DNA of 32,000 nt from Faecalibaculum rodentium (GTDB lineage Bacteria; Bacillota_I; Bacilli_A; Erysipelotrichales; Erysipelotrichaceae). How positions within the stretch are numbered: the stretch's first letter is position 1; the number at the start of each line of letters is the position of its first letter. Shown piece by piece: positions 18,131 through 26,808 of the stretch. The notes under the pieces were generated by a model that was not told where the DNA came from, did not search any database, and saw nothing but the letters and a program-made list of their open reading frames with translations. Location: the NCBI RefSeq assembly GCF_001564455.1, contig NZ_CP011391.1:2040001-2072000 (forward strand), read 5' to 3'. The position numbers and the translations under genes were made by a program.

Positions 18131-19142
18131 TTACGATACCTTTCTAATAAATTTATTCGGATACAAGAAGAACTCCAACCACTCTGTCTTTTTCATGATA
18201 CAAGCAGCCATAATCGGACCTACAAAGCTAATTCCAAGTCCCAGCACTACATGAATCACAGTGTTTTCGATGCCGATCTTCATCAGGATAGATCTCATCG
18301 GTGCCGCAAACAAAGTGTGCATCAGGAAAATCGGCATTGTGTATTTTGCAAGAAAGTCCATTCCTCTACCGAACTTTTCCTCAAAACCCGCCGCCATCAA
18401 GATAACAGCTACACAAGCTAATAGCCCCATTGCGAAAGAGATCACACTACTGCCGATTTCCACCGTGTATACTACAATACTCAGAATTATAAACAGCATT
18501 CCGAATATTGTTCCTTTTACTTTTCTCCCCTTCAGCTGCACATTAAACGCACAAATACTCATACCGAGCACAAACCAGATTTCGTTTGAGAGAACCGTCG
18601 ATACAGCGTAAACGCTGTACCCCCCCCCCAGTTAAAATCAGGACTTTTGCTGCCAATGCAACAATCAGCCCTACCGCAGCTGCTTTCACACTGCTAAAAG
18701 TCGGTGTAACAAGAAAGATAAAGAATAGTGCATACAAATACCAGTACGGTGTTGTTGGGCGAAAAAATAATGTATCATCCAGACCTCCAATCTGGTTATT
18801 AACACGGCTTGGGAATACCTTTTTCAGCACCCATGTAGCAGTCGTAAAGGTTGCATAAGGAACACCAAGTGCTAACGCTTTTTTTGTCACATTCTTGCAC
18901 CAGCTACCAACACTGTTTACCTTGCCGTATTTCTGATACAAGTATCCGCTACAAATAAAGAACAGCGGTACGTGGAAGTAATAGATTGTCGTATTAAACC
19001 ATCCATACAGATTATTTTCCGGCAGAATATTCGCCTTCGTCATGCTCTGGAAGAAATGGCCCAGTACAACCAATATGCAGGCAATGACTTTTACATCATC
19101 GACCCATTTTTCTCTTGTTCTTACCGCTGTCTTTTCACTCAT
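18131..19142 (-). pseudogene. Acyltransferase family 3 (OafA/WcjE-like O-acyltransferase), out of frame at a G10 tract
   Basis: ORFs 18543..19142 (MSEKTAVRTREKWVDDVKVIACILVVLGHFF...) and 18131..18571 are the two halves. The frame after the tract reads YSVYAVSTVLSNEIWFVLGMSICAF. With G9 the gene is 1011 nt, giving 336 aa. Confidence 0.8.
18620..18629 (-). repeat. Homopolymeric G10 tract (C10 on the plus strand), coding-strand context actGGGGGGGGGGtacag
   Basis: Counted directly. Confidence 0.9.
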
Positions 19143-20323
19143 TACTTCGTCTCCATCTGCTGTGCGATATCAGTATCCACGATTTCCTCGCCAGTCTTGT
19201 GCTTCAGCTGCTCCTTAGATGCTTCACTCAGACCGTTATTGATCACACAGTTCATATCGCAGGTGCTGCACTTATCCAGATCCTCCTTGGTGACCTTGCC
19301 ATCACGGTAATCACGGCAGATTTTCAACTCGTACATGCTGTACGGATGCTTGGTAAAGAGAGCCTTGAACTTGTGAACCAGAACCCAGGTAGCGGGCTTC
19401 CAGATGTACTTGTGCATAGCCGGAGAAACAGAACCAATCATCCAGCAGTCACGGTCGCAGCAACGAACCTTTGCACGAACCTTCTCGGCCTCCGGGCTGT
19501 TCCACAGCTCATCCCAAGTCTGGTTATTCAGGTTGCCCATGACTTCTTTATCCTTGGTACCATTGCAAGGCATAACATCACCATACGGGTCGATGAAGAA
19601 GGTATCGAAGCTCATGTCGCAAGGCAGCAGACGCTTCTGGCCGTAGATGTAGTTGATCAGGCCGTGGTTGAAGTAAGCACGGAACCACTTTTTCGGGCTG
19701 TTGCTGCGGAGCAGTTCATTGACCAGGTTCTCGAAGTTCTTTGCAACCATCGGACGGTCATGGATGATGTTCTTTGCCTCAACAAAGTAGAAACTGTTGT
19801 GCAGAGAAGCGGTAGCGAACTCCATACCCATCTCATCGGAGATCTTGTACAGCGGAACCAGGTCAGGAGCGTTCTTGTCCTGAACGGTCATACCGAAGCC
19901 AACGTCCTTCATGCCCATCTCACGCAGTTTCTTCAGCGTGCCATAACCACGCTGGTAGCCGTTCTGTAAACCACGGATCTCGTTGTTGGTCTGCTCCAGA
20001 CCCTCGATAGAGATACGGATACCGATCTGCGGGAACTCTTTGCACAGGTCAACGATACGGTCAGTAAAGAAGCCATTGGTCGAAATAACAATACGGTCAG
20101 ACTTCTTGTACAGCTCACGCACGATATCTTTCAGGTCCGTGCGGATAAACGGCTCACCGCCGGTGATATTTGTAAAGTACATCTTCGGCAGCTTCTTGAT
20201 GGTTTCAATGCTGATCTCCTCTTCCGGCTTGGAAGGTGCTTTATAGCGGTTGCACATGGAGCAACGGGCGTTGCAGCGATAAGTGACGATGACAGTACCA
20301 TTTAACTTCTTTTCTTCAAACAT
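19142..20323 (-). CDS. Radical SAM enzyme with SPASM/twitch-like auxiliary cysteine clusters
   Basis: The motif C17-x3-C21-x2-C24 (YRCNARCSMC) is present. Downstream segments are PCNGTKD...VRCCDRDCW and a C-terminal C-x16-C-x2-C-x3-C cluster. Its start overlaps the upstream gene by 8 nt. Its stop overlaps the next start (TAATG). Confidence 0.85.
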   Translation of the reverse strand: MFEEKKLNGTVIVTYRCNARCSMCNRYKAPSKPEEEISIETIKKLPKMYFTNITGGEPFIRTDLKDIVRELYKKSDRIVISTNGFFTDRIVDLCKEFPQIGIRISIEGLEQTNNEIRGLQNGYQRGYGTLKKLREMGMKDVGFGMTVQDKNAPDLVPLYKISDEMGMEFATASLHNSFYFVEAKNIIHDRPMVAKNFENLVNELLRSNSPKKWFRAYFNHGLINYIYGQKRLLPCDMSFDTFFIDPYGDVMPCNGTKDKEVMGNLNNQTWDELWNSPEAEKVRAKVRCCDRDCWMIGSVSPAMHKYIWKPATWVLVHKFKALFTKHPYSMYELKICRDYRDGKVTKEDLDKCSTCDMNCVINNGLSEASKEQLKHKTGEEIVDTDIAQQMETK

Positions 20324-20935
20324 GATTAACTCTCCTATTGTTTACTTTATCTTTTAAGAATGTTTCGATTTTATTTAAGAACCACTTTGCACATACCGAG
20401 AACACAATCGAGCCGCAAACGACTACAACAGCCGTGAAAAGATATGCCAGCAGACCGTTTCCAAACAGATGTACAAGGTGTAGCTTCTCAAGCACACGAT
20501 AAATTACCATGTGGCACAGGTAAATCTCGAAGCAGATACCACCGAGGAACTTGGCGACTGGATTGACCAGTACCCCCCCCTTGCATCCGAGGGTATAAAT
20601 CAGTGCTGCCACACAGAAGAACAGCACCGTGAGCGTATTGCCGCCTAATGCAAAATAAGCAACTGCGGCAATCAACAAAGTCGCTCCGGCGATAACTTTG
20701 CATTTTGCTGCAAACTCAGCCAACTCTTTCCGATATAGAAAAATCAAGCCTCCAGCGATAAAATATACTGCACAGTACAGAATGTTTGTCCTTGCACTGA
20801 AATTTACGGCTGCTCCATCTGCAATGTGGCTTTCATCAAAGAAATATGTACTGCATACGAAGTTGTAGATTACGGCGCAGATAAATGCCAACCATGCACG
20901 TTTCTTGTTTTCCAGCAGAAAGCAGAAAAAAGGAA
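20316..20935 (-). pseudogene. Acyltransferase family 3, 3' portion (interrupted by IS1595); contains an in-frame G8 tract
   Basis: The segment reads ...PFFCFLLENKKRAWLAFICAVIY...ICFEIYLCHMVIY. It continues the 5' portion at 22056..22493 in frame once the IS and one target-duplication copy are removed. Confidence 0.8.
20573..20580 (-). repeat. Homopolymeric G8 tract (C8 on the plus strand), coding-strand context caaGGGGGGGGtactg
   Basis: Counted directly. It encodes the GG in GCKGGVLV. Confidence 0.9.
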
Positions 20936-22055
20936 CTTGATAGGCTACGAAGCTCAGTAAAGCTAAGCTGCAACCAGTTGTTTCTGGACGTCTTTAAAGT
21001 AGTCGATCATACCCTGCCGGGTCTGGTGAGCACCGCTGATTAGAGTTCTTCCCAGTGATGCAAAGATACTCTTTTTCTTCCATTTCCGGCGACTCAGTTT
21101 CCACTCGAAGTCTGCTAATTCGTTCTCCAGAAACTGCAGTGCGATCCCGTGTGCAGTCCCCTGTACCTTGCTTCTGAAGTTGGAAATGATGTGATCCAGA
21201 GAGGACAGATGATCTGTATCCACTTCGAACTTTTGGGCATCCACCAGTTTGCCGGCTATATCCAGAGCCAGGTTGGCCGAACTCCGGTCACAATGCACTA
21301 CACAGTCACTGGGGACTTCTTCTTCCAGAAACTTCTTCAGTTCTGCCTTATTCTCGCTGTGAACGATTCTGAATTTGACAGCATCTGTGGCTTCGAATAC
21401 TTCCTCATCACCATCCATGTCGTCCCAGACATAGTGTTTGATCACAGCTGCAGCCACATTGACTTTACCTTCTGCTCCCCATCCACGCTTTCCATGCTTC
21501 TTTCCGCCATAGGAAAAGACATCCAGTTCGATCGCATCGCAATCAACGGCTATGTGAGTTTCGTTGTCCTGCTTCTGAGCCTGTTTGATCTTGCGAAGCA
21601 TGAGTTTTGTGGTGTGGTAGCTGACACCTGTCAGATCACTGATGTATTTGGCAGAAGTTCCCGTCTTGGAGATAACATAGGCGAACATCACGAGGATCCA
21701 GGAAAACAGAGGAGCCTTGGTGCTTTCCAGCGCTGTCCCGGCAGTGACAGATTCCTGATGACCACAGTGAGCGCACTGATAGACAGTTCTGAGAGAGCCG
21801 TTTTTTCGTACAACAGTCGTGTAGTGGGTATGACCGCACTTTGAGCACACAAAACCATCCTTCCACTTCAGATCAAAGAAGAAGCGTTCTGCGTCATGGG
21901 GGTCTGAATACTGGGCATGGATATCAGCAAAAGTCAGGTCTTTGAACAGCGATTTCTTGAACATAGGGTGCCTCTCTTCCTGATTCAAGTATCGCATTAT
22001 TACTGGCGCTATTTATGCGTGATAAGCTATTAACTGAGCTTGGTAGTCTATCAAG
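20936..22055 (-). mobile_element. IS1595-family insertion sequence (1120 bp) with imperfect terminal inverted repeats and 8-bp target duplication
   Basis: The inverted repeats are CTTGATAGACTACCAAGCTCAGTTAATAGC (reverse complement of 22026..22055) and CTTGATAGGCTACGAAGCTCAGTAAAGC (20936..20963). The direct repeat AAAAGGAA occurs at 20928..20935 and 22056..22063. Confidence 0.85.
20963..21964 (-). CDS. IS1595-family transposase (N-terminal zinc ribbon plus ISXO2-like DDE domain)
   Basis: FFFDLKWKDGFVCSKCGHTHYTTV...YQCAHCGHQESVTAGT is the zinc-ribbon pattern. The likely start is MFKKSLF at 21964, with a GGAAGAGAGG RBS. Confidence 0.8.
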   Translation of the reverse strand: MFKKSLFKDLTFADIHAQYSDPHDAERFFFDLKWKDGFVCSKCGHTHYTTVVRKNGSLRTVYQCAHCGHQESVTAGTALESTKAPLFSWILVMFAYVISKTGTSAKYISDLTGVSYHTTKLMLRKIKQAQKQDNETHIAVDCDAIELDVFSYGGKKHGKRGWGAEGKVNVAAAVIKHYVWDDMDGDEEVFEATDAVKFRIVHSENKAELKKFLEEEVPSDCVVHCDRSSANLALDIAGKLVDAQKFEVDTDHLSSLDHIISNFRSKVQGTAHGIALQFLENELADFEWKLSRRKWKKKSIFASLGRTLISGAHQTRQGMIDYFKDVQKQLVAA

Positions 22056-22493
22056 AAAAGGAAACAGCAGATAAAACACAAAAATCACTGCCAAAGTCCA
22101 ACTCACACCGATAACCGATATGTTCATATTCGGCAAAAATCCCTGGCAGAGTGTCAGGTTTGCAAAGACCTCATACAACGCACTTTTACTAGGTGACATT
22201 ACGAAGTCCAGCACACAAAGCAACGCGAAATATGGCCAGATCTTGCTGTACCTTTTGTTGTAGAACTCTCCCACACCAATTTTCTGATCCTTGAATTTCT
22301 GGTAGTAGCCGCAGCACATGCCAAAGCTGCTGACCATCATAAAAAGGAAAACGAGGTTTGTGAAAGATGGTATCAGCCTCTCAAACACAAATCCTCCTAT
22401 CCCATATTCTCCATTTGCGAGGACGTGCATCAGTGCAATGCCAATGATGGCATACGCCTTCAATCCATCTATTCCCTCATATCTCTCTTTCAT
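22056..22493 (-). pseudogene. Acyltransferase family 3, 5' portion (interrupted by IS1595)
   Basis: MKERYEGIDGLKAYAIIGIALMHV...VSWTLAVIFVFYLLFPF matches the family. Its ATG overlaps the stop of the upstream gene (ATGA). Confidence 0.8.
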
Positions 22494-26171: not shown

Positions 26172-26434
26172 AATTCTTTCCCACACACAATCCCACTCAA
26201 TTTCTTCATCTATATTTCAGCCAACACAAAGAGCAGACAGGCTTGTTCACCTGTCCGCTGGCTGTCACCCCACCCTCATGGTCGAGATTTCTTCCTGTGC
26301 AGCATTTCTGCCACACAGAAAGATTAATCGTTCATTCTTCGGGTAAGAAAATATGAACTTCGGGGCGCGGAGCCTTTCATTCTCTGCCGTACCCTTGTCC
26401 CTATTATGACAGCCGCGTATTATTTCACACTCCC

Positions 26435-26808
26435 CATGGATAGTAACAATCACTTTCTTGCCAAGGAACTTTGGTATCCAAGAAAAAAAACGCAGGTCCT
26501 TCAGCGTGGATGTGCACGAGATCAAATTTCCCAAGCCCACTGTAGAGTGCAGAAAAAAAGGACGAACTTACAGCCGCAAGTCCTTTCCTATGAATTGTCG
26601 GAACCGCTTTTTGGCTAATCCCATCATATTCAACCAATTCTTCATCATACTCTGCCCCGCTAACATGATGGCCGCTTCTATTAAAACAAGTCACTTCATG
26701 TCCTTCTCTTACCATTCGAGTACAGAGTTCCTTTACTACAATTTCTACTCCACCTTCTCTGGATAGACGTTTCTGGCCGAACATAGCAATCCTTAATTTT
26801 TCACTCAT
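26435..26808 (-). pseudogene. Frameshifted, truncated paralogue of the N-terminal domain of the GT4 gene at 25044..26171
   Basis: MSEKLRIAMFGQKRLSREGGVEIVVKELCTRMVREGHEVTCFNRSGHHVSGAEYDE...HIHAEGPAFF parallels the intact gene. The frame changes at a T8 run (A8 at 26483..26490 on the plus strand). Similarity continues as SWIPKFLGKKVIVTIHG and then stops. Confidence 0.75.

Follow-up and report, generated by a model that had tools for sequence, protein, structure and literature searches.

The main finding in the window, by which is meant the whole 32,000-nucleotide stretch of Faecalibaculum rodentium DNA that was analysed, is a gene for a membrane O-acyltransferase of the Acyl_transf_3 (AT3) family that is interrupted by a mid-gene run of G residues. 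The gene is best read as a contingency, or phase-variable, gene of a polysaccharide locus, in which slipped-strand changes in the length of the poly-G tract would switch the O-acyltransferase on and off, a reading to which we give a probability of about three in four. In sequences that are otherwise identical the tract is found at different lengths, and in-frame (ON) and out-of-frame (OFF) alleles both occur naturally. The locus contains two AT3 genes, and the gene in question, being the second of these in the gene order, is referred to below as the second AT3 gene.

Anatomy of the gene and its reading frames

The gene and its parts are arranged as follows.

18131..19142, minus strand: second AT3 gene, encoding an Acyl_transf_3 membrane O-acyltransferase; out of frame with G10, 336 aa with G9
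18620..18629, minus strand: G10 homopolymer (C10 on the plus strand), the candidate slippage tract, encoding Gly172-174 between two hydrophobic segments
18543..19142, minus strand: N-terminal product of the OFF state, 199 aa, consisting of 174 native residues and a 25-residue out-of-frame tail
18131..18619, minus strand: C-terminal 162 codons, translated solely at tract lengths divisible by three

The first-pass annotation had proposed that a G10 tract splits an acyltransferase-3 gene and that G9 would restore a 336-aa open reading frame, and both statements hold. The gene is out of frame at the C10 run, its span of 1012 nt becomes 1011 nt (336 aa plus a stop) on removal of one G, and the restored protein matches PF01757 (Acyl_transf_3) from end to end, with E=8.7e-32 and 110.9 bits against a cut-off of 31, residues 12-312 being aligned with profile positions 2-324 of 326. 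The same annotation had the upstream frame reading ...KVLILTGGG and then running into nonsense, which corresponds to the 25-residue tail with which the 199-aa reading frame terminates in translation (...KVLILTGGGVQRLRCIDGSLKRNLVCARYEYLCV and a stop). The frame 3' of the tract begins YSVYAVSTVLSNEIWFVLGMSICAF... and is open until the stop at 18131. The gene is thus in frame with G6, G9 or G12, giving 335, 336 and 337 aa, respectively; G7, G10 and G13 lead into the same +1 tail, and G5, G8 and G11 into a second tail, TAFTLYRRFSQTKSGLCSV.

In AT3 enzymes that have been studied, a histidine near the N-terminus, in the first helix, and an FFxxSG-type motif have known roles. H29 and the segment F61-F62-I63-C64-S65-G66 are invariant in the 31 homologues compared, and this histidine and the FFICSG motif presumably have a catalytic role in the second AT3 gene product. 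A crude hydropathy scan gives many hydrophobic segments over the full length of the protein, with those at 154-171 and 177-200 flanking the tract. The AlphaFold model, made from a shallow alignment, has around 12 helices and is unusable at a mean pLDDT of 37.9, and a sequence search of the PDB returned no relative. The best 120 listed homologues are 85-97% identical and mostly 334-347 aa long; named ones include those of Holdemanella porci (88% identical) and Hominenteromicrobium, and a further homologue is found in one Lachnospiraceae genome bin. The window's 199-aa OFF product gave no record on exact look-up.

The polysaccharide locus

The second AT3 gene lies within a Wzx/Wzy-type polysaccharide locus that occupies the minus strand from about 28252 to 10517. 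The order of genes is a priming transferase, GT4 glycosyltransferases, a GT1-like gene, the first AT3 gene (split by an insertion sequence), a radical SAM/SPASM gene, the second AT3 gene and a hexapeptide acetyltransferase, followed by WbsX, Wzy, Wzx, a pyruvyl transferase and an FrhB-like protein. The G+C content of the locus is 32-45% (window 10500-20000) against 54% for the genome (PMC4752744). Given its place in such a locus, the putative activity of the second AT3 gene product is presumably acyl transfer onto a glycan acceptor. The neighbouring features that bear on the argument are listed here.

27008..28252, minus strand: priming sugar-phosphate transferase (Bac_transf), frameshifted by the loss of one C in the coding-strand C run 27114-27116
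22056..22492, minus strand: N-terminal half of the first AT3 gene
20936..22055, minus strand: IS1595-family insertion that splits the first AT3 gene; 1120 bp long, flanked by an 8-bp target duplication (AAAAGGAA) and with imperfect inverted repeats of ~23 bp at its ends
20316..20935, minus strand: C-terminal half of the first AT3 gene, with a G8 tract at 20573-20580
19142..20323, minus strand: radical SAM/SPASM gene, the stop codon of which overlaps the start codon of the second AT3 gene
17568..18128, minus strand: hexapeptide-repeat (LbH) acetyltransferase, immediately downstream of the second AT3 gene, with an in-frame G8 tract at 17950-17957

From the overlap of stop and start codons, the radical SAM/SPASM gene and the second AT3 gene would be expected to be co-transcribed. 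Homologues of the radical SAM/SPASM protein are numerous (6711 proteins at E<=1e-100, with one 90%-identity cluster of 10,053 members), and the gene usually sits 3' of two GT4 genes, forming a GT4-GT4-radical SAM block in many polysaccharide loci of gut Firmicutes. An AT3 gene is often absent after these homologues, as in the neighbourhoods of P0164 and P0212, which overturned the view that the radical SAM, AT3 and hexapeptide acetyltransferase genes form a fixed set of three.

The contigs that carry an intact Faecalibaculum priming transferase (P0297) have no AT3 tract and a different variable region, and a different variable region is found behind the same priming transferase in Faecalibaculum contigs other than the window (L054-L061). 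Taken with the low G+C content of the locus and the AT3 homologues in other genera, this points to a cassette that is passed horizontally between families of gut Firmicutes.

Two smaller observations concern mobile and fragmentary sequence in the locus. One member of the IS1595 transposase protein cluster is present on at least 1000 contigs. An N-terminal GT4 fragment (26425-26808, minus strand, a 127-aa ORF) separates the priming transferase from the first full GT4 gene, and since the near-identical contigs L062 and L063 have a 119-aa GT4 fragment at the matching position it is probably a gene remnant rather than an assembly error.

Variation in tract length among homologues and metagenomes

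What lengths, then, does the tract take in related bacteria? Metagenome-contig DNA was scanned with the flanks fixed and the tract free, so that there was no bias towards any frame, and after L028 and L033 had been excluded as chance matches there were 16 true matches, 7 in frame and 9 out of frame.

G7 followed by TAC: 2 contigs, out of frame
G8 followed by TAC: 3 contigs, out of frame
G9 followed by TAC: 4 contigs, in frame
G10 followed by TAC: 3 contigs, out of frame
G7 in a variant with GAC replacing TAC: 1 contig, in frame
G11 in the GAC variant: 1 contig, out of frame
Interrupted tract: 2 contigs, in frame

Some of these contigs have only 2-6x coverage, where errors in the tract are possible; those that are out of frame with good coverage include L024 (G8, coverage 54) and L031 (G10, coverage 16). 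A pattern scan of genome contigs with exact flanks returned one locus.

At the protein level the tract site in the best 120 homologues reads TGGY, TGGGY or TGGGGY, with a few interrupted forms (GIG, GTG, GMG), and in-frame homologues that encode two, three or four glycines are the signature of a slippage-prone tract. The earlier suggestion that a G10 is liable to slip is supported by these glycine numbers and by the occurrence of G7, G8, G9, G10 and G11 in the frame-unbiased scan. The first-pass annotation had also raised the question of mixed glycine codons at this position, and the homologues mostly turn out to have a pure G run that differs in length (G9 in L001-L011, G7-G11 in the scan).

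A query built from the two out-of-frame tails alone retrieved 41 protein clusters from independent assemblies, with implied tract lengths of approximately G4 to G11. For P0155 (G8), which is among these clusters, 25 contigs are listed, and the tail of the window's own OFF product recurs in independent assemblies. Across related gut bacteria the tract varies from G7 to G12.

Further comparisons are between sequences that are nearly identical outside the tract. L036 (G9) and L037 (G10) have 0 mismatches over 4805 bp and the tract is the single gap between them. Over their last 4.4 kb L027 (G9) and L031 (G10) differ by two substitutions and two indels, both indels being in G tracts, and in the near-identical central ~9 kb of the alignment of L036 with L024 all four indel events are in G tracts. 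Between the window and L022/L023 (99.8-100% identity) the only differences over 4.8 kb are within and beside the two G tracts. This restriction of indels to G runs fits a hypermutable repeat and not general sequencing noise.

An odd allele of the tract region, AAATTGTGGGGGGTTCAGC, was also seen. In L022, L023, L062 and L064, which come from different sequencing runs, the equivalent of 18592-18631 has AAATTGT GGGGGG TTCAGC replacing AACT G10 TACAGC, together with a 2-nt TC deletion 27 nt downstream, in sequence otherwise identical to the window. The cluster of lesions amounts to four substitutions and two deletions within 40 nt, and no donor sequence for the scrambled tract was found nearby. 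The OFF alleles of L012-L021 have the second AT3 gene in three ORF pieces. With such second lesions, whether in these pieces or in the scrambled tract and 2-nt deletion of L022/L062/L064, these particular OFF alleles cannot revert.

The spread of lengths also bears on programmed recoding, in which the G10 template itself would yield full-length protein through frameshifting of the ribosome or slippage in transcription, so that the gene is expressed in spite of its apparent frameshift. RNA polymerase can in principle slip on homopolymer runs. Recoding sites are, however, normally of fixed length, and what is found here is not a slippery site conserved out of frame at one length but a tract for which the scan gave all of the lengths G7 to G11, with most homologues in frame at the DNA level through G9 or G6. 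For these two reasons recoding is unlikely, and we regard it as very improbable indeed.

Reliability of the recorded length

The genome of F. rodentium ALO17, the strain to which the window belongs, was assembled from PacBio RS II C2 reads only, at >50x coverage (PMC4752744). This, together with a second one-base homopolymer loss in the locus, means that the record of G10 rather than G9 or G11 is not to be trusted. The second loss is that in the priming transferase, where the window is one C short of the C4 found in L062 and L063, two near-identical contigs of public sequencing runs in which the gene is whole at 457 aa; an exact look-up of the window's 414-aa truncated form returned no record, and the frameshift could be either a true inactivating mutation or a consensus deletion of the long reads. 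The G tract of the window's hexapeptide acetyltransferase is also one G shorter than in near-identical contigs. The first-pass annotation had named an assembly artefact, with a fixed G9, as the alternative, and this caveat holds: a homopolymer miscall, with the true ALO17 tract being G9 and the gene intact, or being of some other length, is a real if doubtful possibility. It would concern the recorded state of the window alone and is compatible with natural hypervariability of the tract.

Several points count against such a miscall. Over ~14 kb the window differs from those contigs by 9-10 substitutions, with indels only at homopolymers or beside the tract of the second AT3 gene, so it is not generally error-ridden. 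PacBio consensus may under-call homopolymers, and the loss in the C4 run goes in the same direction. If under-calling is at work, however, the tract would in truth have at least 11 Gs, and G11 too is an OFF length. Moreover, OFF lengths occur in 9 of the 16 independent metagenome assemblies, so that an OFF state is explicable without any artefact.

Maintenance of the tract

Is the tract kept, or is it only a fragile site in a gene that is being lost? The conservation test was made across 16 lineages that share only 80-90% nucleotide identity, in which the third base is invariant at just 22% of 63 conserved four-fold-degenerate codons. No glycine codon is rarer than GGG, whose share is 6.7% across the locus and 11.5% where glycine is conserved in the second AT3 gene, and yet the GGG GGG GGG run is pure in most of the 16 lineages. 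Retention of a pure run despite the rarity of GGG argues against a neutral or merely fragile site, and on these codon statistics the tract is conserved beyond neutral expectation.

This matters for the explanation that the gene is a decaying pseudogene in a degenerating locus, the tract being no more than the weak point of a dispensable accessory gene in a laboratory isolate that no longer needs the polysaccharide. There is something to be said for decay, as the window has three lesions in one locus (the frameshift in the priming transferase, the IS1595 element in the first AT3 gene and G10 in the second), a shortened GT4 remnant, and relatives whose second AT3 gene has acquired irreversible second lesions. 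However, if the tract were merely fragile and deleterious, mixed GGN codons should have taken its place, and instead the pure run persists at 80-90% identity in genes that avoid GGG elsewhere. Among the abundant full-length alleles in frame are G6 and G12, which differ from G9 by whole codons. In addition, near-identical strains exist without the IS insertion or the priming transferase lesion, so that any decay must be recent and strain-specific. Decay of the locus is on this evidence improbable, somewhat more so than a miscall, and a phase-variable acyltransferase gene remains the preferred reading.

Runs of G are also unusually distributed in the DNA around the gene. The window has three sites with G>=8 (five overlapping 8-mer matches), all three on the minus strand; dinucleotide-preserving shuffles gave an expectation of 0.74 8-mer matches, and none of 100 shuffles reached five. 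In the related loci L001-L041, oriented by their AT3 gene, the sense strand has all 78 of the G>=8 runs and the antisense strand has none. They occur in genes for hexapeptide acetyltransferases, AT3 proteins, DUF6625, GT2, GT1-like, GT4 and FrhB-like proteins, and several of them vary in length among near-identical contigs. As an extreme, L026 has five such runs within 9.3 kb (at 1715, 2284, 2823, 5013 and 8581). The idea that TAC follows every tract proved too narrow, as TA follows in 9 of 18 distinct tract contexts, an excess over the roughly 1 in 12 expected, the remainder having A, C or TC/TG.

A model for the proposed switch

The second AT3 gene product would be a 10-TM-type O-acyltransferase of an exopolysaccharide or capsule locus. 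In replication, slipped-strand mispairing would add or remove G residues one at a time, a process that would be reversible within a clone as long as no further lesion is acquired. At tract lengths of 6, 9 and 12 the full enzyme would be made, with GG, GGG or GGGG accommodated in a short turn between two hydrophobic helices, and at the remaining lengths a stop 19-25 codons past the tract would leave a protein of ~195 aa without its C-terminal half. In the ON state the enzyme is predicted to O-acylate, and most likely O-acetylate, a sugar of the polysaccharide repeat unit. When OFF, this decoration would be absent, which would alter antigenicity as well as recognition by phage or antibody. The window, with G10, would represent an OFF length.

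The two other acyl/acetyltransferase genes of the locus are proposed to switch independently of the second AT3 gene. The tract of the hexapeptide acetyltransferase is G9 in L022, L023, L062 and L064, where it is out of frame and splits the gene into 71 and 125 aa, and G7 or G8 in ten contigs of another lineage (L012-L021), where both are out of frame; the corresponding protein cluster includes shortened products of 66-74 aa. The first AT3 gene is whole, at 349 aa, in L022, L023, L062, L063 and L064. As the hexapeptide acetyltransferase and the first AT3 gene have separate G tracts, the locus can vary combinatorially. The states of near-identical strains compare as follows.

Window (ALO17): first AT3 gene broken by the IS; second AT3 gene G10, OFF; hexapeptide acetyltransferase G8, ON
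L022/L062/L064: first AT3 gene intact with G8, ON; second AT3 gene OFF; hexapeptide acetyltransferase G9, OFF

These sequence states fit independent switching of the genes.

Comparison with known systems

Among gut commensals, the nearest precedent is the pilus switch of Bifidobacterium breve UCC2003, where intragenic G10 or G11 tracts divide sortase-dependent pilus genes into two ORFs and G9 fuses them, with equivalent G tracts across related strains (PMC9187656). That study cautions that an annotated tract length may reflect the limits of sequencing, and it measured switching in clonal populations by error-corrected sequencing (PMC9187656). The likeness to the second AT3 gene is in the host being a gut commensal, in the G run being within the coding sequence and in G10 splitting and G9 joining the gene. 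The differences are that the B. breve target is a pilus subunit, that the host is an actinobacterium and that clonal switching was measured there, whereas sequence comparison is used here.

Slipped-strand switching of polysaccharide acyltransferases is also known, in pneumococcal wciZ (serotypes 15B/15C) and in icaC of S. aureus (PMC4432689). Both resemble the present case in having a repeat within a gene for a surface-polysaccharide acyltransferase, and there the inactivation is reversible and the polymer itself is kept (PMC4432689). Their hosts are pathogens, and the enzymes are probably not close relatives of the second AT3 gene product. IcaC belongs to the same broad type of membrane acyltransferase, and the wciZ and icaC repeats are made of di- or tetranucleotide units rather than poly-G.

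Finally, surface-glycan loci with several poly-G tracts are classic in Campylobacter, and two reports on Campylobacter jejuni describe multiple poly-G tracts in capsule and LOS modification genes, and combinatorial surface variation arising from them (PMC8437040, PMC13317227). The window is similar in having three G tracts in three acyl/acetyltransferase genes, and a related contig has up to five within 9.3 kb, but the bacteria concerned here are Gram-positive commensals of the gut (Erysipelotrichaceae, Lachnospiraceae and others). In the literature searched, poly-G switching is not described for the polysaccharide loci of gut Firmicutes, and the papers on gut-commensal polysaccharides contain no account of this locus. 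The phase variation found there was mainly that of Bacteroides invertible promoters, and the capsule of Mediterraneibacter gnavus has been reported without phase variation.

A possible wider system and its meaning

Beyond the single gene, there may be a general system in which Gram-positive commensals of the gut (Erysipelotrichaceae, Lachnospiraceae, Oscillospiraceae and others) have many sense-strand poly-G contingency tracts in their polysaccharide loci, mainly within acyl/acetyltransferase and glycosyltransferase genes that are shared horizontally. A single strain could in this way produce a combinatorial repertoire of surface decorations, with more than half of natural alleles OFF at any time. 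We consider the case for this broader proposal to be evenly balanced. If true, it would be a Firmicutes counterpart of the Bacteroides invertible promoters and the Campylobacter poly-G loci.

The surface polysaccharides of gut commensals influence antibody coating, phage susceptibility and colonisation. If the tracts do switch, strains that look identical could differ in the acylation of their polysaccharide, routine annotation would label the affected genes as pseudogenes, and one would be misled by tract lengths taken from assemblies of long reads or of low coverage. F. rodentium has been much studied as a commensal of the mouse, and with an 88% identical homologue in Holdemanella porci the switch may matter for studies of host interaction.

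Other features of the window

Just past the end of the polysaccharide locus, the ORF at 8492-9841 (minus strand) has RVT_1 and GIIM domains, those of a reverse transcriptase and a group II intron maturase. Between 2000 and 4000 the window has a G+C content of 61-64%, far above its surroundings, with long ORFs that overlap on both strands.
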